Of a DNA stretch of 20,000 bases, positions 5,055-19,972 are shown in pieces. The stretch lies in the IMG/VR virus record IMGVR_UViG_3300030106_005234, one strand, 5' to 3'. The notes beneath the pieces are model-generated. The model saw only the letters and a program-made list of their open reading frames with translations, did not search any database and was not told the DNA's origin. Source of the stretch: an uncultured virus (IMG/VR IMGVR_UViG_3300030106_005234). Lineage: Duplodnaviria > Heunggongvirae > Uroviricota > Caudoviricetes. The position numbers and the translations under genes were made by a program. Positions within the stretch are counted from its first letter, which is position 1. Each line of letters opens with the position of its first letter.

Positions 5055-5104
5055 GGTGGCTCCTGTTGAAGCCACCATCATATCCGTCAGGCTGCGCTGG
5101 GCAA
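5055..5104 (-). promoter_or_regulatory. Candidate sigma70 promoter followed by an RBS-sequestering hairpin
   Basis: Minus strand TTGCCC-16 bp-TATGAT, then GGTGGCT-TCAACAGG-AGCCACC (7-bp stem) overlapping the AGGAG of the 44-aa ORF. Confidence 0.45.
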
Positions 5105-5878
5105 ACCCTGAAATTTGCGCTTCAAGATTCGCTGCACTTTTGAGTGCGTGAGCGGCGGGATGTCGTGCAAGCTGTTGACTTGGTTTGCGATTTTGCGAGG
5201 GCCGAGACCGCGCTTGTTGAGACGGTAGATTGTTTTGAGCACCGCCTGCTCTTCTGGCACCTCTTCAAGATACTTGCGCGTCTTGCTGCCAGTCTTGTGC
5301 TCGACGTGGCGGTAGCCATACGGAGCTGAGCCACCAATGGCGTAGCCGCGAGATGCCCAGTCGAGTTTGCCGGCGGCAAAGCGATCCTTGATCGTCGCGT
5401 GCTCGATCTCGGCAACCGCCGACAACACCATCAGCATGATCTGGTTCGCCATGTGGTTCATATCAAATTTAGCATCCAAGCCCTTGGTGCGTGCGGCATC
5501 TGGATAGACAATCGGCATCTCGCCAAACTGCTCACAGAAAAACAGGGTGATCCCAATCTCTTGCAACTTGGGAATCAAGGCAAGCAGGTCGGAGCTGGAG
5601 CGTGACAGTCGGTCGAGCCGGGTGCAAACCACCACATCGTGCTCGTCAATCACGTCAGTCATGTCTCGACTGGCAGGACGATCCAGCACCGCGTGAGTAC
5701 CAGAGACGCCCTCGTCCGCGAAGAACTGATCAACCTCGCGATTGTATTTCTCATGCACAAATTCGCTGATCTGCTGCATCTGCGTTTCGAGCGAGATGCC
5801 CGACTTTACCTGCTCGTCTGTGGACACACGCACATATCCGTAGATGTTGTTGATCTGCCGTAATGGGTTGCCGCTCAT
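5087..5878 (-). CDS. Serine recombinase (resolvase/invertase catalytic domain plus short C-terminal recombinase-type DNA-binding region)
   Basis: YGYVRVSTDEQ (catalytic Ser), DEGVSG...RP, VVCTRLDRLSRS, AVAEIE...IKDR, GGSAPYGY and a KIANQVN helix. The likely start is ATG 5878, coupled to the upstream stop (263 aa). Confidence 0.92.
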   Translation of the reverse strand: MSGNPLRQINNIYGYVRVSTDEQVKSGISLETQMQQISEFVHEKYNREVDQFFADEGVSGTHAVLDRPASRDMTDVIDEHDVVVCTRLDRLSRSSSDLLALIPKLQEIGITLFFCEQFGEMPIVYPDAARTKGLDAKFDMNHMANQIMLMVLSAVAEIEHATIKDRFAAGKLDWASRGYAIGGSAPYGYRHVEHKTGSKTRKYLEEVPEEQAVLKTIYRLNKRGLGPRKIANQVNSLHDIPPLTHSKVQRILKRKFQGLPSAA

Positions 5879-6153
5879 TACTCGACCCTCCACATACGAA
5901 TTGCGCCTTTGTCCTCGCTTGTTCTTTGAGCTATCTTCACCCCTTGTTTTCTAGCCATTGCCTTGAAAACATTGCCCTCTTTCGAGTATCGCTGTGCTTT
6001 GTTGCCCTCGCCCCATATTGTGTCCACAGCAAACTCGACGCTATCTCCAATCTCCATAACATTCAAAACGTCCTGAAACTCTTGGTGTCTTGGGGTTCGC
6101 ATGTGGCTTCGGTTTTCGGGCATCGGTATGCCTTTATCAATCTTCAACATCAC
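5878..6153 (-). CDS. Small phage protein of the KIDKGIPMP type (possible DNA-binding protein)
   Basis: N-terminal KIDKGIPMP, middle MEIGDSVEF and C-terminal IRMWRVE. This is a recurrent small phage protein pattern. GGAG RBS. Confidence 0.75.
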   Translation of the reverse strand: MMLKIDKGIPMPENRSHMRTPRHQEFQDVLNVMEIGDSVEFAVDTIWGEGNKAQRYSKEGNVFKAMARKQGVKIAQRTSEDKGAIRMWRVE

Positions 6154-6383
6154 TTCACTCCACCTTTGTAGCCGTAATCGGCCATCTCTTCGTGCAGCCG
6201 CTGCCAGTTGATATCCAGCGGCATGTTGTCGGTGCTGCGGTCAGCGAACATCACCTGACCATCCTTGACCAGCTCCACGCCAAACACTGCCTTAGGCATC
6301 CCATCGTACCGAATGTCGATGTCGTGCTTGAGGCAGGTGCGGCGCACCCGGTTATAGAAAATCTTCTTTTCCTGTGCAGTCAT
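6150..6383 (-). CDS. Hypothetical protein (77 aa)
   Basis: GGAGG RBS; translationally coupled to both neighbours. Confidence 0.75.
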   Translation of the reverse strand: MTAQEKKIFYNRVRRTCLKHDIDIRYDGMPKAVFGVELVKDGQVMFADRSTDNMPLDINWQRLHEEMADYGYKGGVK

Positions 6384-6661
6384 TACCCTGCCTCCTTCTG
6401 TAAAAATTCGTCGTAGATCTCCTTCACCGCATCGGTTGCGCCAAGCTCGCGAGCTTGCTGTGCAAGATATTTGCCCACCTCTGTGATCTTGAAAGCCTTA
6501 TAAGTGAAGCTCCACAGCTCCTCTTCCGTCATCACTGCGCCGCGCCGAAATAGCTCAGGCAAAACCATTGCCTCGATGGGGGTCAGGTTGTGTTTGAGGG
6601 CAAACTTGTTCAGGTCGGCCATGAATAATTGCTCGTTAGAAGTTTTTTCGTCTTTGGTCAT
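6383..6661 (-). CDS. Hypothetical protein (about 92 aa; start reassigned to MTKDEK)
   Basis: The ORF-track start at 6769 runs through the divergent promoters. ATG 6661 follows a GAGAGA RBS just downstream of the leftward promoter. Confidence 0.7.
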   Translation of the reverse strand: MTKDEKTSNEQLFMADLNKFALKHNLTPIEAMVLPELFRRGAVMTEEELWSFTYKAFKITEVGKYLAQQARELGATDAVKEIYDEFLQKEAG

Positions 6662-6688
6662 CACTTGATCTCTCAACAGGAAAATCAA

Positions 6689-6717
6689 AGAATACCGCAT
6701 CGCGTGTCGATGTGCAA
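6689..6717 (-). promoter_or_regulatory. Leftward sigma70-type promoter with GACACG spacer motif
   Basis: TTGCAC-atcGACACGcgatgcgg (17 bp)-TATTCT, followed by a hairpin TTGATTTT...GAGATCAA. Confidence 0.7.
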
Positions 6718-6750
6718 GTGTTAATTCAACATGCACATAAATATGGAGCT

Positions 6751-6779
6751 TTGCATATGGACACGGCATGTGTTAAAAT
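6751..6779 (+). promoter_or_regulatory. Rightward sigma70-type promoter with GACACG spacer motif
   Basis: TTGCAT-atgGACACGgcatgtgt (17 bp)-TAAAAT, followed by hairpin TTTGTG-CGTCAC-CACAAA and an AAGGAG RBS. Confidence 0.75.
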
Positions 6780-6808
6780 GTTTGTGCGTCACCACAAAGG
6801 AGAACGTG

Positions 6809-7006
6809 ATGAAGACCGAAATAAAAAACCCCACCAAGCGCAAAATTCGCAAACGAGGGTTTACACCGATACGCTATTATCATGACTCTGGCATCCACCA
6901 CGGGTGGATCTACAAAGTTGGCACAAAATACAGCCACGCTCGCTTCCCGAGTTTGGGCAACGTGCGAATTAGCAAAGATGACATGCGTTTTGTGAGGGAG
7001 CTGTAA
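6809..7006 (+). CDS. Basic hypothetical protein (65 aa; start reassigned to MKTEIK)
   Basis: AAGGAG at 6797-6802 precedes ATG 6809. The stop overlaps the next ATG (TAATG). Confidence 0.75.
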   Translation: MKTEIKNPTKRKIRKRGFTPIRYYHDSGIHHGWIYKVGTKYSHARFPSLGNVRISKDDMRFVREL

Positions 7007-7512
7007 TGACTATACGTTCAAAGCGCGGCCCCAACGTGACACCCGACGAGCACAAGCTCGTTGTGAAGTTTGCAAAGCAGTGCCTGAAAGAAATCTGCAA
7101 GAAACAATATGAGATCGAGTATCAAGGCAAGCCTGTCGTATACGCCGAGGCTCTCAAGCGGATTCACGTACGGACCAAGTATCGTAATCAACGCAGCTAC
7201 GGCTCCTACGATCACATCTCTATCGATATGAAACGCTATCGACGGAGCCTTACCTCATTCACTGAGTACCGCTCGTTTGCTGATGATCCTGTTATAGGCA
7301 CCATCAGCAACTGCGATGACCGCGAGCTTCTGCTGAAGTGCTTGGTCGCTCATGAGGTGGCGCACCACATTCAAATGCGGTACGGCCTTTTTACTCGTTA
7401 TCTCAAAAAGACATATCGCAAGCCGCATGGCGATGCGTTCAAGACGATCTATCGTGAGTTGCGGCGCACATTGGTCAACCCTTACATCGAACCAATGCAG
7501 GAGGTGGCGTGA
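7006..7512 (+). CDS. SprT-like zinc metallopeptidase-domain protein
   Basis: LVAHEVAHHIQ (HExxH) followed by KPHGDAFKTIY (HGxxF), the SprT-like signature. Confidence 0.75.
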   Translation: MTIRSKRGPNVTPDEHKLVVKFAKQCLKEICKKQYEIEYQGKPVVYAEALKRIHVRTKYRNQRSYGSYDHISIDMKRYRRSLTSFTEYRSFADDPVIGTISNCDDRELLLKCLVAHEVAHHIQMRYGLFTRYLKKTYRKPHGDAFKTIYRELRRTLVNPYIEPMQEVA

Positions 7513-7625
7513 TGACCCTGCTGAAAACACAATACGTTCAGTTCACCAACGAAGAGATCGAGATGCTGTCTACGCTTATGCGTAGCAGCTCCGACGTTTA
7601 TGGAGGATCAAGATGGAAAAGCTGA
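7512..7625 (+). CDS. Possible small ORF (37 aa)
   Basis: GGAGG RBS and TGATG coupling. MTLLKTQYVQFTNEEIEMLSTLMRSSSDVYGGSRWKS* fills the gap between flanking genes. Confidence 0.45.
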   Translation: MTLLKTQYVQFTNEEIEMLSTLMRSSSDVYGGSRWKS

Positions 7626-8012: not shown

Positions 8013-8157
8013 GACTTATGTCCGCGACATTCACGACATGGATGAGCTGCATGACTTGATCCAAGATTTGATGGATCAATTTGTGTACGAGGACGACCAG
8101 GTTACGGTGAAGATTACTGCTGAAATTGCGGCCAACCTTACAGCGCCACATCCATAG
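7987..8157 (+). CDS. Acidic hypothetical protein (56 aa; start MKNLTITF)
   Basis: GAGGG RBS before ATG 7987. Ends convergently, overlapping the 3' end of the large minus-strand gene. Confidence 0.6.
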   Translation: MKNLTITFETYVRDIHDMDELHDLIQDLMDQFVYEDDQVTVKITAEIAANLTAPHP

Positions 8158-11100
8158 CACTTTTGATGGCCTCACGTTCCGACTCGCCAAAGATATCTTC
8201 GTATAGATACTTGCCGGCTTCATACCCCGGAAGCGTTCTTAAAAAAGCCCTTGCCATGGGCAGTTGAGGCTGAACGGCCTCTACAATTGGCCTTGTTAGT
8301 TGCGCTATACCCTCTTGAGCCTTCCGGCTCATCTCCCTCCCCTCGGGTGTTGACGGCTCATAATCTAATGCTTCGGTCACTTTTTGCTTTACCGCTCTTG
8401 CCCTTGCCGCCGACAACTCATCCATCATGTCTAACGTATCACGATCTGCCCCGTACAGTTTAGCGGCCAATCTGCGCGGCAAATCTGTTGTGTACGACCC
8501 AAAACCTGCCGCACCTCCGACCGCCGGAGAATACATGGCTGAAAGCGCATCAAGCCCTGCTTCAACACCGGCAAGATTTTTTTTCATTTCTTTTACTTTG
8601 GCTTGAGTTTCCGGCGTCATTGTCGCTGCGCCAACACCTACGCCAGCCGGAATCAATACTGGTGGTGCGCTTGCGAGTATGTTGGCAGAGTCTTTTTGAG
8701 CAGGATCAAACTTCGCATTGATTGAGCGAATCAGATTCTCGTTACCGGGGAAGACGATGGTGTGCATTTTCCCTGCACCCATACCTGCAAACTTTTCGCC
8801 CGCCGTATTGTCAACGACGCCCTTGTAGCCTAAATCAACCAGCACGTCCTGCATGATCTGGCCGTTACTCAAATACTCACCAGTTTCAAAGTCTGGGTTC
8901 AAATAGCCGCGAACAATATCATTGATCGTAGTAAAATCTATTTGACCGTCTTCCATGACGGACTCAATTACATCGTCAACCGCTTCCTCTCTTGCGCCTG
9001 CCTTTCTAAGGCTGTATGCAAGTTCTGCGGTTTGGCTTTCATAGTCAGTGTTTTCGAGTTCGTTAGCGTACTCGAATACAGCGTCCTCATAATCATTATC
9101 GCTTTCAAAGTCAGATCGGTTAATTTCCTCTCTGGCGGATTCGTAATACTGATCTCGATCAATCTTAATAACGGTTTTGTTTTTGCCGCCTATCACTGCG
9201 AAATCTTTGTTATTTACAAAAACCGGGTAAATAACCCCATCATTCGGGCCTTTTAAGATAGTTGTGGCCGCGAGTTCTACTGCTGTTGTAAGCGCGTTAA
9301 GGTCTCGCTTTTTATAAAACTTATCGACCAGCCCCTTAATCTTGGCAACTACTTTTGGATCTCCTATCTTGTCCCAAAATTCGGGATTAAGCTGCGCTTT
9401 CAGCATCGAATCGCCTTTCAAACTTTCTTCTATTTTTTCAGCAAGATCACTTATACGCACGGCCAAGTCTGGCCCCTTGCCTGCATAGTTTCTTGAAGCA
9501 TCGCTTGGAGAAACTGTGAAATAAGTGCCTTTTCCAAAATCATTGTCTGCATAGAGGCTGGGGGCAAACTCTGTGATATTAAACGTGGAGCCATGGTACA
9601 AGATTTGATCGGTGTCCATATCCATTCGATCTGCCTTCAGCATTTGCTCGGCAAATTGTTTTAAGGCACCAGCCTCAACCTCTTGTGGGGTCACCAATCC
9701 AGCCGATAGCAACGTAAACGTCAAAGCACCGCCGGTCATTCCGGTGATTGAATTTACGTCTACGCCGCGAGCCTCCATACGACGCAAGATGTCTTCAGTG
9801 ATCGTGCCGCCATAAGGCTTCATCTGTAGCGCCCGAATCTCTTTCTTTGTTGGGCTGGCTGGGTCTTTTACTTTTTTCTGAGCTTTTCCAAACCGAGCTT
9901 CTGGCAACAAGTCAAAAGCCGTTGCCGCGCCTGCCTTCCTGAGCACGCCGAGACCAGTGCCGGGTACTGCATAAGGATACGAGGGGTGATCAGACTCAAA
10001 TATATCGATGTCGGCAAAAATGCGGCCTACGTTCTGAATGCCTGCGTCTCTGGCCGTGAGCTGCGTGGGGTCAGCATTGATCAGTCGCGCCGCGCCGATG
10101 GACAAGCCGCCTTTATTGCGGAACTCCACGTCCATCATGTTCATGAGTTCTTTCCGAACAGAGTCCGGGGTGTTACGCCAAACTTCCACCGAGCTTGGAT
10201 CATCTATGCCCTTCCACCCTTCAATCTTTCGGCCAGCGCCAACCCGCTTACCTTTGACCATTTTGCCTGTGGTTTCATAAGACCTTATAGCCTTGTCCAA
10301 AGCCTTCTTCGTCGTCTTGGTCATATTGGCTGCGGCATAACCGAGCATCAATTCACCTGTCGTTGTAGAAAAGTCTCCGCCTGTTGGGGCCATGCGCCAC
10401 GGGATGTACAGCGGGTCTTTGCCAGACTTGGATTTTAAATCCCTGGCTAACTGTAAAATTTCACGGGACGGTTTCTCTGCTGATGACCACACCGCGCTGG
10501 GGTTGTTGAACATAAAGTCCTGACCGCCCGGCAGGTAGATAGGATCGACTAGCTCAACTCGATTGATGCTTTTCACGTCGCCACCGGCACGGGTTCTGTC
10601 GGTCATCGAGGTGACAAAGTCTTCACCCTCAAGTTCTGATAGCGCCAGCCGAGGCATAGGCCGCGTGTAATTGCTGCCAATGATCTCAGCCTCAAGGTTG
10701 CGGAGCATTTCCTGCTCCCTTTTCCTTGGATCAAACCGTGGGTCGAAATCACCTTTGATGATTAGGTCGGCAATACCGCCGCCTCTGGCAAATTTGCGTA
10801 TCTGCCCACCTTCCGCTTTCAACAAATCTGGCGAATCAAGGTCTTCAAACTCAGCATAGATTGAGCGAATATCGGAAGGCTCGAAAACGGCGAAGGTCGA
10901 GTATTCGGGCGATTCTATATCCGCCTTTGTCGCGGTGCTTTCTTTCAAAAACATTGAGTCATAGCCCTTGGTCTTTAGAAACCTTACGACCTCTGGGTTC
11001 TCATACAGCAAATAGTTTCCCGACTTGTAGCCATCTCTAAGTTGCGGAAGGTCTTGGCTAAACGGAGAATCCATTCTTTCTTTCCCAAACAGCTCTTCCA

Positions 11101-11869
11101 GCACCTCGTAATCTTTATGCGGCACAAATGGTTTTTTGGCTCTTGTGACCACGGGGTAGATGGCGCTGTCGGCCTCTCGCTCTTCTTGATATAGTTGTTG
11201 TCTCTTGGGCCTTAATACTTCTTCGTAATACTGGCTACGTTGATCTTCTGGCAGTGATCTTAGTATCTCCTCTGCTTCTTCGTTGAGCTGTTCTATCTCT
11301 TTCCTCACGCCTTCAATGGCACCAGTGCCGCCTTGCCTTTCTTTAAATTTGCCCTTGCCAAGCCAGTTGTTTGCAAATTCTTTGTTTGGAGTCAGGAAAA
11401 CAAGCCCGTCATCATAACCGGGCACGAACTCATCGATGTCTTGCTTGCTGGCGTGGTACATGACGTTGTCGAAATCAAAACCCGCTTCTTTGGCTCGCAA
11501 TAACCGTTGCGCTGCCCTCGGAGCCTTCAAAACGCCACCAATAAGCGGCCCGGCGACAGGAATTACACTCGCGACATCGCCTACGCCGCCCAATCCCTGC
11601 AATAACGCGGACAGATAATCGCCTTCGCGCAAATTTTCACGCAGGCTGGGTGCCCTCGGACCCGACATCATCTGCTCCACCGTCATGTTCCCTCGCGGAA
11701 ACTCTGGAAACTCTCCAAAAATATCTATGGTTGCAGATTTCGGCGCAAAAGACGCTGCCAGGTTCGCAAGTTGCGCTGGCGTTAGCGAAGGAAGAGGACT
11801 GGTGGCGCGAGAACCCCTGACGCGGCGAGGTTCAGGCTCGAAAATATCAACGTCATCCATCGAAGACAT
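8138..11869 (-). CDS. Large polyvalent protein with two ADP-ribosyltransferase-like (ART-PolyVal-type) domains; probably virion-packaged/injected
   Basis: Two copies of the pattern YH[AG]S...F...G[LT][VY]F...IYPV...GY.....VF.P...IRSI.A.F: about 11490-10845 and about 9620-8700. They are separated by a KAEGG...FARGGG linker and an unassigned domain of about 350 aa. Confidence 0.75.
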   Translation of the reverse strand: MSSMDDVDIFEPEPRRVRGSRATSPLPSLTPAQLANLAASFAPKSATIDIFGEFPEFPRGNMTVEQMMSGPRAPSLRENLREGDYLSALLQGLGGVGDVASVIPVAGPLIGGVLKAPRAAQRLLRAKEAGFDFDNVMYHASKQDIDEFVPGYDDGLVFLTPNKEFANNWLGKGKFKERQGGTGAIEGVRKEIEQLNEEAEEILRSLPEDQRSQYYEEVLRPKRQQLYQEEREADSAIYPVVTRAKKPFVPHKDYEVLEELFGKERMDSPFSQDLPQLRDGYKSGNYLLYENPEVVRFLKTKGYDSMFLKESTATKADIESPEYSTFAVFEPSDIRSIYAEFEDLDSPDLLKAEGGQIRKFARGGGIADLIIKGDFDPRFDPRKREQEMLRNLEAEIIGSNYTRPMPRLALSELEGEDFVTSMTDRTRAGGDVKSINRVELVDPIYLPGGQDFMFNNPSAVWSSAEKPSREILQLARDLKSKSGKDPLYIPWRMAPTGGDFSTTTGELMLGYAAANMTKTTKKALDKAIRSYETTGKMVKGKRVGAGRKIEGWKGIDDPSSVEVWRNTPDSVRKELMNMMDVEFRNKGGLSIGAARLINADPTQLTARDAGIQNVGRIFADIDIFESDHPSYPYAVPGTGLGVLRKAGAATAFDLLPEARFGKAQKKVKDPASPTKKEIRALQMKPYGGTITEDILRRMEARGVDVNSITGMTGGALTFTLLSAGLVTPQEVEAGALKQFAEQMLKADRMDMDTDQILYHGSTFNITEFAPSLYADNDFGKGTYFTVSPSDASRNYAGKGPDLAVRISDLAEKIEESLKGDSMLKAQLNPEFWDKIGDPKVVAKIKGLVDKFYKKRDLNALTTAVELAATTILKGPNDGVIYPVFVNNKDFAVIGGKNKTVIKIDRDQYYESAREEINRSDFESDNDYEDAVFEYANELENTDYESQTAELAYSLRKAGAREEAVDDVIESVMEDGQIDFTTINDIVRGYLNPDFETGEYLSNGQIMQDVLVDLGYKGVVDNTAGEKFAGMGAGKMHTIVFPGNENLIRSINAKFDPAQKDSANILASAPPVLIPAGVGVGAATMTPETQAKVKEMKKNLAGVEAGLDALSAMYSPAVGGAAGFGSYTTDLPRRLAAKLYGADRDTLDMMDELSAARARAVKQKVTEALDYEPSTPEGREMSRKAQEGIAQLTRPIVEAVQPQLPMARAFLRTLPGYEAGKYLYEDIFGESEREAIKSAMDVAL

Positions 11870-12339: not shown

Positions 12340-12418
12340 GCCTGTCTGGGCAAATGCCTGTCTACTCGGCCACACGTTTCATCCTCTCCCAAAAAAACCG
12401 GGTAGGCAGGTATCTTTT
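12340..12418 (+). ncRNA. Candidate small RNA: 16-bp stem with C/U-rich loop
   Basis: ATGCCTGTCTACTCGG (12354-12369) pairs with CCGGGTAGGCAGGTAT (12398-12413) using 3 G-U wobbles that exist only on the + strand. The loop contains TCATCCTCTCCC; CTTTT follows. Confidence 0.5.
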
Positions 12419-13313
12419 ATCTGAAGCCGCTACCACGCATCATCGCTAGTTGTCTTGGGCCTTGCTGTTGCGCGAAATTCATTGGCGGTTGCATCGATCC
12501 GATGCCCATTTGGGTCGAACGAAGGCGGTTCAAACTTTCTGGGCCTTGTGTTCTCAACATCGGCATGGGGCGTCCGCCTTGTTGTTGCAATGATCTCATG
12601 ATATCTGGACCAAAGAAGTCTCTTGCCCGGTCTTGTGATGGTAAGGTCGGGCCTCCGCCTTGTTGTTGCAGTTGTGCTTGCGCTCTTAAACCCGCCCCTT
12701 GGTCCACGGGTTGGCCTCTCAGCCTTCCTAACTGCTGCCCTAACTGCTGCCCTAACTGCTGTTGCCGCAGCATATTTTGCCTCGCTTGCATCATTGGGTT
12801 GCCCATCATTGGGTTGCCCATCATGCCGCCAAACCGTTGGTTCATGCCGCCAAATTGGCCCATCTGGCCTCCGAAACGGTTACCAAAGCCGCCCATACCG
12901 CCCATACCGCCCATACCGTACATCGGCTGGGGCTGAGGTCGCATCATGCCGCCGAACTGGTTGCCAAAGCCGCCAAATTGGCTTGGCATTCCGCCAAATT
13001 GATTGCCCATACCGCCGAATTGGCCTCCGTAGCCGCCCATTCTGCCAAATTGGCCACCCATGCCTCCGGGCTGGCCGCCAAAACCGCCAAACTGACCGCC
13101 AAAACCGCCCATGGGGCGCTGGGGCTGCATCATGTTGCCATACATGCCGCCGCCAAAACCGCCCATCGGTTGTTGCGGTTGCATCATGTTGCCGAATTGC
13201 TGTTGTGGTGGCTGAGCAGGTCGCGCTTGGAATGATTGGAATTGCTGCGGTTGCAACGGTTGCGGTTGTGCCAACTGAGCACGGGATGGAGATTGCGAAA
13301 ATGGGCTGAACAT
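12417..13313 (-). CDS. Gly/Gln/Met/Pro-rich low-complexity, probably disordered protein (298 aa)
   Basis: Repeats GGQFGG, NQFGG, GGMGGM, MMGNP and QQLG with synonymous codon variation that keeps this frame. Same strand as its neighbours. Confidence 0.75.
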   Translation of the reverse strand: MFSPFSQSPSRAQLAQPQPLQPQQFQSFQARPAQPPQQQFGNMMQPQQPMGGFGGGMYGNMMQPQRPMGGFGGQFGGFGGQPGGMGGQFGRMGGYGGQFGGMGNQFGGMPSQFGGFGNQFGGMMRPQPQPMYGMGGMGGMGGFGNRFGGQMGQFGGMNQRFGGMMGNPMMGNPMMQARQNMLRQQQLGQQLGQQLGRLRGQPVDQGAGLRAQAQLQQQGGGPTLPSQDRARDFFGPDIMRSLQQQGGRPMPMLRTQGPESLNRLRSTQMGIGSMQPPMNFAQQQGPRQLAMMRGSGFR

Positions 13314-13637
13314 CGCTGGCGCCTGTGATGGTTGTGGAAACCATGATGGCGCAAGGGGGTGGGTGAGGTCAATCGGGATTTGCGTTGGGGATTTTTGGGG
13401 ACTGAATGTCCCAAACCTTGCTATAGCTATCGCGCTCGCCGCGCTCGCTATATAGGGGGGTGCGGGGGTCGCAATCTAACGCGATTTGACTGGCTTTTTC
13501 TGGACCCATAGGGTTCCTTATGCCGTGACACCGACCGCCTGTGCGCCTCTTGTGTGCGTTCTGACGCACAGAAACCAGTAGATCAGAGGTTACCGGGCAC
13601 ACCGCGTATCGCCCCTGCTCAGGCAGGGCCAATCCAA

Positions 13638-17001: not shown

Positions 17002-17712
17002 ATGGCAATTTTAGCTTCAGAAGATTCAGGGGGCGAGTATGAACAAGTTCCTACCGGCACGCATAATGCCGTGTGCTACCAGCTCGTTGACGCTGGCACG
17101 TCAATGGACGAGTTCCAAGGCACCGAAAAGAAACGCCACTTCGTGTACATCTTTTGGGAACTGCCAGATTTGCCGATGGCGGATGGCCGACCCATGTCGA
17201 TAAGCCTTAAATACAACCTGACGCTGCACGAGTCGGGAAAGCTGCGGCGGCATTTGCAATCATGGCGCAACCGGGCGTTCACCGAGGAAGAGCTGAAGTC
17301 GTTCGACCTGACGCAGATCTTGGGCACAAACTGCAAAATTGACGTTGGCCTCAATAGCAATAACAGAGCGAAAGTGCTGAACGTGTTTGCCGCAGACGGC
17401 GGCTCGAAAAAGGTTGAAACGGTCAACGAACAGACGGTTTTCGATCTTGAGGACTACTGCCTTGAATATTCTGGGCAATCGAACGAAGCCAGCAAGCACG
17501 CCTGTGATGTGTTAGAGGCATTGCCAGTTTACATTCAGTGGGACATCGCAGGATGCGACGAACCGGGGCGTGATCCACGACCACCGTGTTTTGAGGTGCA
17601 GGCAGCAATGAAGAAGGCGCAAAAGCCTACAGCTAAGAAAAAAGCTGCGCCGAAGAAGGACGATCCTGCACCAGATGACGGGGCACCGTTTGACGACGAC
17701 ATCCCGTTTTAG
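17002..17712 (+). CDS. Phage single-stranded DNA-binding-like replication protein
   Basis: VPTGTHNAVCYQLVDAGT...LRRHLQSWRNRAFTEEELKSFDL pattern and the acidic C-terminal tail FDDDIPF typical of SSBs. Lies between the primase-helicase and the exonuclease. Confidence 0.75.
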   Translation: MAILASEDSGGEYEQVPTGTHNAVCYQLVDAGTSMDEFQGTEKKRHFVYIFWELPDLPMADGRPMSISLKYNLTLHESGKLRRHLQSWRNRAFTEEELKSFDLTQILGTNCKIDVGLNSNNRAKVLNVFAADGGSKKVETVNEQTVFDLEDYCLEYSGQSNEASKHACDVLEALPVYIQWDIAGCDEPGRDPRPPCFEVQAAMKKAQKPTAKKKAAPKKDDPAPDDGAPFDDDIPF

Positions 17713-17715
17713 GGG

Positions 17716-17874
17716 ATGGTGATGCAAACAATCCTACAAATTGTGATGCGTATGCGTGGTTTCATGGCAGAATGTCACGACAAAATGATGACAGGTAGGA
17801 TGTCGCACCTGACCGGATATGCGGTGGTCGCAACGTTCGTGGCAGGATTGGTCATTGGAATGTTGATTGGCTAA
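17716..17874 (+). CDS. Small membrane peptide (50-52 aa), not in the ORF track
   Basis: MVMQTILQIVMRMRGFMAECHDKMMTGRMSHLTGYAVVATFVAGLVIGMLIG*, with a C-terminal hydrophobic helix and AGGGG RBS. Confidence 0.6.
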   Translation: MVMQTILQIVMRMRGFMAECHDKMMTGRMSHLTGYAVVATFVAGLVIGMLIG

Positions 17875-17999
17875 GGGTTCATCACGCCCTCCAACGGTGC
17901 CCCGCCCACCGAGCCAGAAGGCGGGACTATTTAGAGCAAGGGTCTACCCCCTTTCCCGCGTGTCGCCCGGCCCACGTGCTCGACAGGTCGGGTTTTTTT
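17873..17999 (+). ncRNA. Tandem pair of hairpin + H-type pseudoknot RNA-like motifs
   Basis: Unit 1: AGGGT..GCCCT, CGGTG/CACCG, CCCGCC/GGCGGG. Unit 2: AAGGG..CCCTT, CGTG/CACG, CCCGGCC/GGTCGGG, followed by T7. Confidence 0.5.
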
Positions 18000-18782
18000 A
18001 TGGAAAAAATTATGGATTTCGAACCCGGCATTTATGAAGACCTTGATTACCCGACTTACGACTCGATCCCCGCTTGGCGCAGTCATGACCTGACCGCCAT
18101 TGCCAAGTGCCCGTATACGTGGAAGTACGGCGTTTTCAACGAGTCGCCAGCCTTGTTGGAAGGTCGGGTGCAGCACTCGGTGTTCCTGGAGCACCACAAA
18201 TTTTTTGATGAGTACGCCATCCAACCGGCGGTTGATAGGCGCACCAAGGCCGGCAAGGCCGAGTATGCCGAATGGCTTGAGGATGTCGGTGACCGCACCC
18301 CGGTCAAGCAGGATCTGTACGACCTGTGCATGGAGCGGCGTGAGATTGTGTCCGACTACATCCCCAAGCAGAGCGATCACGTTGAGCTGACAATATGTTT
18401 CATGTGGAACAATCAGCAGTGCAAGGGCAAGCTCGACTGGCATACCGGCACAGACATTTGGGATCTGAAGACGTGTCGTGACGCTTCACCCCGTGGCTTT
18501 CGCAGCGCGATCAATACGTTCAAGTACCACCAGCAAGCCGCGTTCTATCTGGCCGGGTGCAGGGCCGTGGGGCTGCCCACTGAAAAGTTCTACTTCTTGG
18601 CGCAAGAGAAAACACACCCCTACCCGTTCGCGGTTTACACCCTGTCTGATGAAGCCGTGGCCTACGGTGACGCTCAGAATGAGCAGGCAATGGCGACAGG
18701 TCTGCGCTGCAAGGAGCAAGACGTGTACCTACCCTATGACGTTGTTGGGGTGACTGAGTTTGACCTCTCCGACCTTTACTGA
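18000..18782 (+). CDS. RecE/exonuclease VIII-like PD-(D/E)XK nuclease (DUF3799-type)
   Basis: PGIYEDLDYPTY, ALLEGRVQHSVFLE, VDRRTKAGK, CKGKLD...IWDLKT, YHQQAAFY and FYFLAQEK. Start is ATG 18000 or 18012. Confidence 0.88.
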   Translation: MEKIMDFEPGIYEDLDYPTYDSIPAWRSHDLTAIAKCPYTWKYGVFNESPALLEGRVQHSVFLEHHKFFDEYAIQPAVDRRTKAGKAEYAEWLEDVGDRTPVKQDLYDLCMERREIVSDYIPKQSDHVELTICFMWNNQQCKGKLDWHTGTDIWDLKTCRDASPRGFRSAINTFKYHQQAAFYLAGCRAVGLPTEKFYFLAQEKTHPYPFAVYTLSDEAVAYGDAQNEQAMATGLRCKEQDVYLPYDVVGVTEFDLSDLY

Positions 18783-18957
18783 TCAGGAAGAGCTGTGGGC
18801 GGAGCAGATCAAATATCACTGTGCCCGTCGCATCTGGTTCCAACGTAACGAGAAAACCCCTTCTGGCAAAAGTACCTGGGCTGATTGGTTCAGCAAAAAG
18901 TTTGGCGAGCCATACCATGAGTACGCCGAGCGTATGCGAAAAAAGAAGCTCGAATAG
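18760..18957 (+). CDS. Hypothetical protein (about 65 aa)
   Basis: TTG start overlapping the exonuclease end; TPSGKSTWADWFSKKFGE. Its stop TAG is the first 3 nt of the promoter repeat. Confidence 0.6.
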   Translation: MTSPTFTDQEELWAEQIKYHCARRIWFQRNEKTPSGKSTWADWFSKKFGEPYHEYAERMRKKKLE

Positions 18958-19036
18958 TATACTTTTTTGCATTTATTTGCATATATATGTAGACAACGAC
19001 ACGGCATTGTGGGATACTTCTTTTGTCGGGGCAATG
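18955..19036 (+). repeat. Promoter-stem-loop cassette, copy 1
   Basis: 82 bp, 75/82 identical to 19856-19937. Contains an AT-rich UP element, TAGACA (18990)-17 bp-GATACT (19013), GACACG in the spacer and a downstream hairpin. Confidence 0.92.
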
Positions 19037-19066
19037 AGGCCAAGGCACAAAGGGAAATTGGAGAAG

Positions 19067-19855: not shown

Positions 19856-19937
19856 TAGTATACTTTTTTACATTTATTTGCATAAAAGTGTAGACAACGA
19901 CACGGGATTTTGCGATACTTCTTTTGTCGGGGCAATG
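19856..19937 (+). repeat. Promoter-stem-loop cassette, copy 2
   Basis: TAGACA (19891)-17 bp-GATACT (19914) with GACACG in the spacer; hairpin TTTTGTCG-G-GGCA-ATGG-TGCC-AA-CGGCAAAA. Confidence 0.92.
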
Positions 19938-19972
19938 GTGCCAACGGCAAAACGGGAAAAAGAGGAACTGCC

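Follow-up and report, generated by a model that had tools for sequence, protein, structure and literature searches.

Two tandem elements of about 60 nt in the DNA of an uncultured tailed phage (IMG/VR IMGVR_UViG_3300030106_005234) belong to a genuine, uncatalogued family of structured RNAs. The stretch analysed, hereafter the window, is 20,000 nucleotides long and forms the terminal part of a 72.5-kb virus record (G000). The fold, the arrays, the exchange of arms between units, the complementarity of the first unit to gene starts and the restriction of those starts to non-late genes are all established by comparison with relatives. From sequence comparisons, we consider it somewhat probable that the units are processed antisense RNAs acting in trans, and that unit 1 blocks translation of several non-structural, probably early, genes belonging to the phage itself.

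The window encodes a tail fibre, a serine recombinase, a small terminase, a primase-helicase, an SSB-like protein and exonuclease VIII (genes were called with a simple script of our own). The array lies in an operon whose first gene (17002..17712, +) probably encodes an SSB, judging by an acidic DDDIPF tail and a weak phrog_862 match. Directly upstream of the array is a 50-aa ORF with a hydrophobic tail (17722..17874, +), of which relatives are known, and downstream is an exonuclease VIII-like gene (18012..18782, +; DUF3799, phrog_412). An alternative ATG for the latter lies at 18000, but relatives begin MDF/MEF, so 18012 is the probable start. The DNA holders listed for the stretch are marine metagenomes, with no RNA holder among them, and the stretch is covered piecewise by contigs from four marine DNA runs, one contig carrying unit 1 and then a different second unit. 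The capsid of the window genome is 62–63% like those of DSL-LC04 and Pelagibacter phage HTVC023P. The first 20 kb of the record contain an N run and a repeated primase-SSB-exonuclease module (58–67% identity); over G000:C1:1-20500 the primase-SSB-exonuclease, recombinase and tail modules of the window are repeated at 58–74% identity, and the first primase-SSB-exonuclease module is without a unit. The record is probably a scaffold built from two related phages, and we handled its halves separately (G000a and G000b).

Elsewhere in the window, a 1243-aa protein (8138-11869, −) matches an ART-PolyVal (ADP-ribosyltransferase) domain, and a 298-aa low-complexity ORF rich in Q, G and M (12417-13313, −) gave no family match. 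A non-coding element adjoining the small terminase gene (about 13395-13475; …GCTATAGCTA…AGGGGGGTGCGGGGGTC) is kept in many relatives and is possibly a packaging or promoter signal. Two AT-rich direct repeats of about 100 bp, 88% alike, precede small genes at 18955-19057 and 19856-19959 and resemble cassette leaders.

Both units fold as a three-way junction, P1[P2, P3], in which the P3 loop, usually UUCCCGUC, pairs with a 3′ strand, GGCGGG or its counterpart, lying immediately 3′ of P1. Unit 1 (17867..17925, +; arm type A) scored 48.9 bits with a model of the family, R1. Its P1 (TTGGCT/AGCCAG) joins 17867..17872 (+), a strand that runs into the stop codon of the small gene upstream, to 17912-17917. 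The P2 hairpin occupies 17874..17890 (+), with its loop at 17879-17885 and, at 17880-17885, CAUCAC, the complement of GUGAUG. Parsing of the sequence placed an anti-Shine-Dalgarno (anti-SD) tract CUCC (17889-17892) and the junction CCAA within 17889..17894 (+), two of the CUCC bases being inside the P2 stem and two inside the P2/P3 junction. P3 (CGGTG/CACCG, 17895..17911, +, loop 17900-17906) is supported by pairing tests in relatives, and the alignment pairs the 3′ strand GGCGGG (17920..17925, +) with 17901-17906. An AU-rich linker (17926..17933, +; linkers in the family are mostly 7–8 nt), which may be a processing site, leads to unit 2 (17934..17993, +). This fits the family descriptor, with P1 (GAGCA/TGCTC) at 17934-17938/17977-17981, P3 at 17959-17962/17973-17976 around a loop at 17963-17972, the 3′ strand at 17986-17993 and an arm at 17939-17958 (loop UCUACC, junction UUCCCG), all on the + strand. 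Unit 2 is divergent, being missed by model R1 at E≤0.01, and recurs in one other locus (L001). Since there is no spacer between P3 and P1 in 127 of 133 units, and the return to the pseudoknot runs through just 1–5 nt, P1 and the pseudoknot helix may alternate rather than coexist.

All helices named in an earlier note on this DNA are present where it placed them. Its unit layout of hairpin, stem A and pseudoknot stands, but what it took for a linker holds the 3′ strand of P1, which closes a three-way junction that it missed; both first hairpins exist, but that of unit 2 was given inexactly and has five C's. Its broader claims, that the element is a structured RNA with covariation and that it fits no recognised family, are borne out by the tests that follow.

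Within the window alone the motif was at chance level, with folding z-scores of 0.09 to −1.46, and a loose H-type pseudoknot descriptor returned about 46 rows across the 72.5-kb contig, so the motif is unremarkable there. The case for the fold therefore rests on relatives, in which one to several copies of the unit precede homologous exonucleases and follow homologous SSB genes. When matches were anchored on sequence only (GTTCCCGTCC..GGCGGG), the first three P3 pairs held in 78/117 distinct viral matches vs 8/120 bacterial chance matches; sliding the partners by 1 or 2 left 3 and 24 matches. P1 (4 Watson-Crick pairs) was present in 68/78, compared with 27.3±3.7 when upstream halves were permuted (maximum 36, 200 permutations). 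In a plain MAFFT alignment of 93 units, the rows of which had been chosen by a descriptor that demanded the helices, 85% of cells were paired (97% in the pseudoknot helix) and slid controls dropped to 39–56%. Fifteen of 20 pairs showed double changes, exceeding all 500 shuffles, with 187 doubly changed cells vs 73±8 shuffled.

Compensated variants of the pseudoknot include GCCGUC/GACGGC, CCCCAGUC/GGCUGGGG, UUCCGUC/GGCGGAA and others, most of them selected by the pairing-requiring descriptor, but it was model R1, in which the pseudoknot is not paired, that recovered a CCCAGC/GCUGGG unit in two loci (L409 and L204). Alternation of U·G, C-G and U-A at one pseudoknot pair fixes the strand of the RNA as +. 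RNAalifold, applied to 20 type-A units, returned just the pseudoknot helix, as a simple hairpin. Rfam gave nothing at gathering score for the window; its only matches, locally at E≤10 and across 10 array loci at E≤1, were sub-threshold and due to chance. The motif was not described in the literature searched. In the set of 10,006 viral candidate RNAs of PMC10690425, four of the six listed supplements held no match, and the motif may be included in its alignment files; the accessible text of PMC5737381 contains no such motif.

Among relatives, the descriptor gave 304 matches, 126 of them distinct and about 10 spurious, and five runs of model R1 on sets of loci that overlapped in part gave 106, 22, 14, 16 and 68 matches. 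The core pattern occurs in about 490 viral stretches, roughly two thirds of them genuine judging by a sample. We dropped about ten GC-rich or isolated descriptor matches (L141, L144, L145, L176, L194, L200, L205, L206, L253 and L390); the omission of L200 applies to the late/non-late, spacer and U-tail counts and to the anti-SD arm test, from which L389 and L407 were dropped too. The 123 distinct arrays, from partly redundant loci, hold one unit (56), two (53), three (12) or four (2), and second units are swapped between close relatives. Carriers are several phage lineages; some have 21–23 gene families in common with the window's group, and G016 has a single one. Arrays usually begin at, or a few bases from, the stop codon of the upstream gene. 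The genes 3′ of them are diverse (exonuclease VIII, a protein of about 500 aa, small hypotheticals), arrays also occur in phages lacking the window-type exonuclease, and in most arrays the downstream SD lies outside the unit. The T7 run reported before the exonuclease is indeed seen in the window sequence (17993..17999, +) but is not a family trait, U-rich tails following 37/90 last units and 14/43 internal units.

We found no copy in bacterial chromosomes (0/201 genomes in a sample of one proteobacterial phylum, and 0/5 with the model). A scan of one of 64 parts of the bacterial genomes gave 121 loci in which GC-rich chance matches drowned any signal, and these were reused as a control. Ten of 100 metagenome loci searched, out of 120, carried units, none on a contig listed as >50 kb (sizes for L763 and L774 are not given). 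The annotated phage collection held no credible copy, and DSL-LC04 held none. A partner protein was considered and rejected, no family being common to all 8 near-complete carriers. A conserved minus-strand ORF was likewise rejected: an SD+ATG there opens 3 codons in the window and other frames in relatives.

The P2 hairpin and P2/P3 junction vary between units, with at least 35 types. Within a type, the loop and junction are constant while the P2 stem covaries (39 rows for type A), which points to an arm sequence that is read by pairing. The unpaired parts of arms are G-poor, and UCC, CUC or CCU is unpaired in 25/35 types vs 13.0±2.3 shuffled (0/2000 as high). P2 loops are 4–10 nt long overall and 7–9 nt in type A, a length on which we rejected mimicry of the initiator-tRNA anticodon. 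Type A, represented by window unit 1, is usually the first unit of an array; its loop CAUCAC and then CUCC are the complement of GGA-N2-7-GUGAUG, that is, of a Shine-Dalgarno sequence followed by GUGAUG. No credible own-genome start motif was found for ten other arm types (B–K), which include window unit 2; one type-G match (1/72) was unconvincing. Four type-B arms each ranked a unit-less locus, L474, first among 100 genomes and loci, with 6–7 of 27 L474 starts in the top 2%. Pseudo-genes on the antisense strand of units were removed in the trimer test described below and in later analyses, but some are left among the top matches of the B–K and type-B target searches.

The complement of the type-A arm recurs at gene starts. 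Across the window's group, which has 17 type-A genomes, starts such as GGAGAAC-GTGATG and GGAGAA-GTGATG are common to small genes of those genomes that are otherwise unrelated. GTG was the commonest of the 64 trimers before ATG (24/258 vs 5/445 without the unit, P = 3 × 10−7, kinship ignored), each gene family being counted once per trimer and the 17 genomes being set against 10 genomes and 49 loci without a detected unit, many of them fragments. GTGATG sites span 23 unrelated gene families, mostly without stop-start overlap. They occur at 45/600 non-late vs 0/289 late genes (families 23/258 vs 0/47, P = 0.03). One 65-aa gene has the site in 6/6 unit-carrying vs 0/2 unit-less homologues, and G008, a complete unit-less genome, has 0/79 sites, though its exonuclease is sister to that of the window. 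Another genome, G032 (4/76 sites), was kept out of the with/without counts as its array site is lost at a contig end.

Of 79 genes in the window genome, those with the top three predicted unit-1 duplexes all lie within a block of small genes (5087-7625). The strongest (−31.5 kcal/mol) is at the candidate target GGAGGTGGC-GTGATG (7500..7514, +, start 7512). The second, GGAGAAC-GTGATG (6799..6811, +; −22.7 kcal/mol), is the start of the 65-aa gene at the head of the rightward small-gene block, and there (6809) arm and site are in exact register, with nine pairs followed by a 2x2 loop and four more pairs. The third (−22.1 kcal/mol) covers the serine recombinase start region (5876..5892, −, start 5878), which is without GTGATG. 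Two further candidates fit by sequence: GGAGTGAA-GTGATG at the start of a 90-aa gene (6148..6161, −), outside the top 10 duplexes, and GGATG-GTGATG at the start of the 50-aa ORF upstream of the array (17714-17724, +). The predicted cost of opening P2 is 6.9 kcal/mol. As separate observations, ORF 7512-7625 encodes 37 aa in the window vs 72–80 aa in relatives and looks truncated. At 6661 (−), the gene that opens the leftward block of small genes also starts GTGATG, with no GGA within the pattern (GAGAGATCAA-GTGATG), and is a possible further unit-1 site. A 14/15 match to the unit-1 arm complement before a 14-codon ORF in the other module of the record (G000:C1:3700-3714) is probably due to chance.

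Kinship and replication bear on how far this association reaches. The exonuclease tree gave 3 supported independent pairs, about 2 of them as expected and none contrary, and two other trees gave 1 each; with just 3 independent pairs, a sign test cannot reach significance. Replication in other type-A lineages, outside the window's group, was weak: 7/144 vs 11/755 (P = 0.016), then 2/203 in fragments near the array and 0–2 sites per contig in eight more. The complete genome G270 had 2/84 sites, the best at a lysis-region gene, and G271 had 0; the unit-A fragments G004 and G020 had none, and G006 mostly has a near-cognate word, ATGATG. As type-A arms are kept in lineages with few own sites, their main target there may lie elsewhere. 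The best duplex in the own genome did not surpass the best in other phages, and inspection showed no evident base-for-base covariation between arm and site.

Shared start words are common among these phages, and may be partly due to cassette duplication. In two cases, array-less relatives appear, from their sequences, to rely on a different RNA matched to a different word. The unit-less half of G000 has a hairpin at C1:11840-11910 (+) whose loop is complementary to AACCGGAG, a word at three starts there. L474, which is also unit-less, has a hairpin on its minus strand (about 5485-5555, counted from that strand's start) holding CUCUCUCCU, which is complementary to six or seven of its own starts (word AGGAGAGAG). 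Both hairpins lie near the small terminase gene; the window has a Q/G-rich ORF at that place. No hairpin-word pair was found in G008 or L509. L509, G006, G033, G270 and G015 have further lineage-specific start words (GAGGAAGTATG, GGAGAAGATGATG, AAGGAGAAG, GCAGGAGTGCAA), for which we identified no complementary RNA.

Of the candidates in the earlier note, small RNAs exposing anti-SD tracts are thus the one we favour: such tracts are unpaired in 25 of the 35 arm types, GTG is enriched before start codons and no late gene has a site. On this model, the units would be transcribed together with the SSB-exonuclease operon, and host RNases would free RNAs of about 60 nt by cutting either in the AU-rich linkers or where the tRNA-like P1/P3 stack has its base, the ends being shielded by P1 and the 3′ pseudoknot. 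The loop CAUCAC would seed on GUGAUG, P2 would open and CUCC would cover the SD. The predicted outcome is shut-off of early genes once the replication genes are on, and unit 1 may also damp the small gene immediately upstream. Other arms would have targets mostly outside the phage's own start sites, in the host or in other phages.

The same antisense mechanism could instead be directed mainly at host mRNAs or at the start words of rival phages, own sites being secondary and clade-specific. We regard this as rather unlikely as the main account, but several observations lean towards it: type-A arms are kept where own sites are few, no own targets are seen for ten other arm types, phages with no more than a single gene family in common can carry the scaffold, and four type-B arms agree on L474. 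The L474 sites, however, are one repeated word, some chance matches are expected when 28 arms are compared with many words, and L474 owns a hairpin with that complement. An unlikely alternative is that the units act in cis on mRNA stability or processing, the pseudoknot blocking 3′-to-5′ (or 5′-to-3′) decay and setting the levels of operon parts, with the arms incidental. The junction-plus-pseudoknot topology recalls viral xrRNAs, but the 5′-end base triple and P3/P1 junction of class 1 xrRNAs are without counterpart in the units. Such a role would suit units that mostly start at or near an upstream stop codon, and pseudoknot repeats of the STAXI family lie near ssb genes too (PMC2864571). It leaves unexplained the kept unpaired arms, their anti-SD bias, the presence of up to four different arms in an array and the GUGAUG enrichment.

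A protein-binding decoy, in which the near-invariant core binds a host defence nuclease or toxin in the manner of pseudo-ToxI or tRNA mimics, seems to us improbable. The core (loop UUCCCGUC with GGCGGG) is strongly kept, in part because the search pattern required both, the units are in tandem, G-UUC occurs as in the tRNA T-arm, and the P1/P3 stack resembles acceptor plus T stems (9–12 bp together). Likeness to tRNA ends with that loop start and stack, however: ARAGORN finds no tRNA and there is no free CCA, type-A loops of 7–9 nt are unlike an anticodon loop, the units are not near-identical repeats, and the matching start sites stay unexplained. Neither a nuclease block nor a ToxI-like decoy, both raised in the earlier note, accounts for the 35 kept arm types or the matching start sites. 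Its suggestion of a cis-regulator of the exonuclease finds no support: different genes follow the array from case to case, and phages lacking this exonuclease have arrays too. A riboswitch, attenuator or terminator of this kind, or a self-cleaving ribozyme, is very improbable. It would fit the ending of window unit 2 in T7 directly before the exonuclease, the RNAalifold result, and a short terminator-like hairpin called at 17978-17993 (3 found vs 1.5±1.4 shuffled). The downstream SD, however, is mostly outside the unit, U-tails are no commoner after last than after internal units, and no ribozyme or riboswitch family matches. HDV-like, hammerhead, twister and pistol ribozymes gave no Rfam match, and no nested second pseudoknot was found in parsed units.

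The closest systems are two phage antisense RNAs, C4 RNA and P4 CI RNA. C4 RNA is a three-stem junction that recognises its target through two elements, a′ and b′. The units are like it in having a three-stem junction with two unpaired target-complementary elements in a loop-plus-junction layout, although the sequence differs; they depart from it in their 3′ pseudoknot, in arrays of up to four arms and in dispersed candidate targets, C4 having one icd-ant operon. In phages P1 and P7, C4 is described as an operon-embedded RNA that represses phage genes by pairing (PMC8198154), and as processed by RNase P (PMC11143913). The 9–12 bp of P1 and P3 without a spacer would be compatible with such processing of the units. 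The C4 model (RF01695) matched 0/5 carrier genomes at E≤10, control genomes also falling below the cut-off, and the array neighbours (SSB-like gene, small hydrophobic ORF, exonuclease VIII) are not a c4-icd-ant operon. The units are therefore not C4 members; on the antisense reading that we prefer, they work like C4 but belong to a different family.

Shared words comparable to those found here are described as the start-associated sequences (SAS) of Cluster K mycobacteriophages, at the ribosome-binding sites of numerous non-structural genes; in four genomes a single copy is reversed in orientation, and the source leaves open whether the binding factor is RNA or protein (PMC3203893). SAS differs in word and hosts and has no RNA described in the accessible part of that source, whereas here the complement is divided between two elements of a defined, covarying scaffold. 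In STAXI (RF01728), 2–3 tandem copies of a pseudoknot lie close to ssb and other genes for DNA handling, and the source gives the function as unknown (PMC2864571). Tandem pseudoknots lie near a probable ssb here too, but the unit loops are without UUCG tetraloops and the units add a three-way junction with a variable arm; the RF01728 model matched 0/5 genomes and gave no candidates, controls also being below the cut-off. Cuckoo/CcsR RNAs of Alphaproteobacteria show an anti-SD in the loops of repeated modules (PMC4615179). As far as that source describes them, these are 2–4 plain hairpins with one fixed CCUCCUCCC loop, whereas here the loops vary by unit on a pseudoknotted scaffold in phages, and the unit loops do not hold CCUCCUCCC in every hairpin.

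ToxI and CptI type III antitoxins are tandem pseudoknot RNAs cut into monomers (PMC4627078). As portrayed there, their repeats stand upstream of a cognate toxin with a terminator, while the present units diverge, are larger and branched and precede varied genes; the near-identical tandem repeats typical of type III antitoxins are absent, with 35 arm types and array neighbours that differ. A toxin check gave DUF3799 for the downstream gene, PF13958 in 0/5 genomes (controls silent too) and no PADLOC hit in 10 proteins. Class 1 xrRNAs have a three-way junction and a loop-to-3′ pseudoknot, as the units do; in those RNAs a P3/P1 junction of several nucleotides pairs with the 5′ end to form a ring, and in the units this junction is 0 nt in 127/133. 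TIGR and VIPR, as far as described, share with the units phage arrays in which a constant scaffold carries variable guides, but they need a cognate protein and target DNA, whereas the units share no carrier-wide protein and have arms that fit the start sites of mRNAs. The distinctive feature here is a shared pseudoknotted scaffold, in arrays and with exchangeable arms, across unrelated phages. The T4 RegB endonuclease shuts off early phage mRNAs at GGAG Shine-Dalgarno sequences (PMC1702504); the outcome proposed for unit 1 is the same, but RegB is a protein nuclease and not an RNA.

The RNA family defined here, which Rfam does not include, combines a fixed scaffold with at least 35 natural arm types. 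If unit 1 acts as proposed, the finding would identify what recognises the start words common to phage early genes, a question that the account of SAS leaves open (PMC3203893), and would show an RNA counterpart to shut-off of the T4 RegB type. More tentatively, and with doubt, the portable, protein-independent scaffold could be a natural programmable antisense cassette, loaded by unrelated marine phages with different arms, in which arm 1 would time the phage's own early genes and the added arms would be directed at host transcripts and at the start words shared within rival phages; superinfection exclusion would then be RNA-based, and arrays would acquire and exchange arms in the manner of spacers. 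A 60-nt scaffold with a swappable arm, and a predicted stability to nucleases, would suit the design of bacterial translational repressors.
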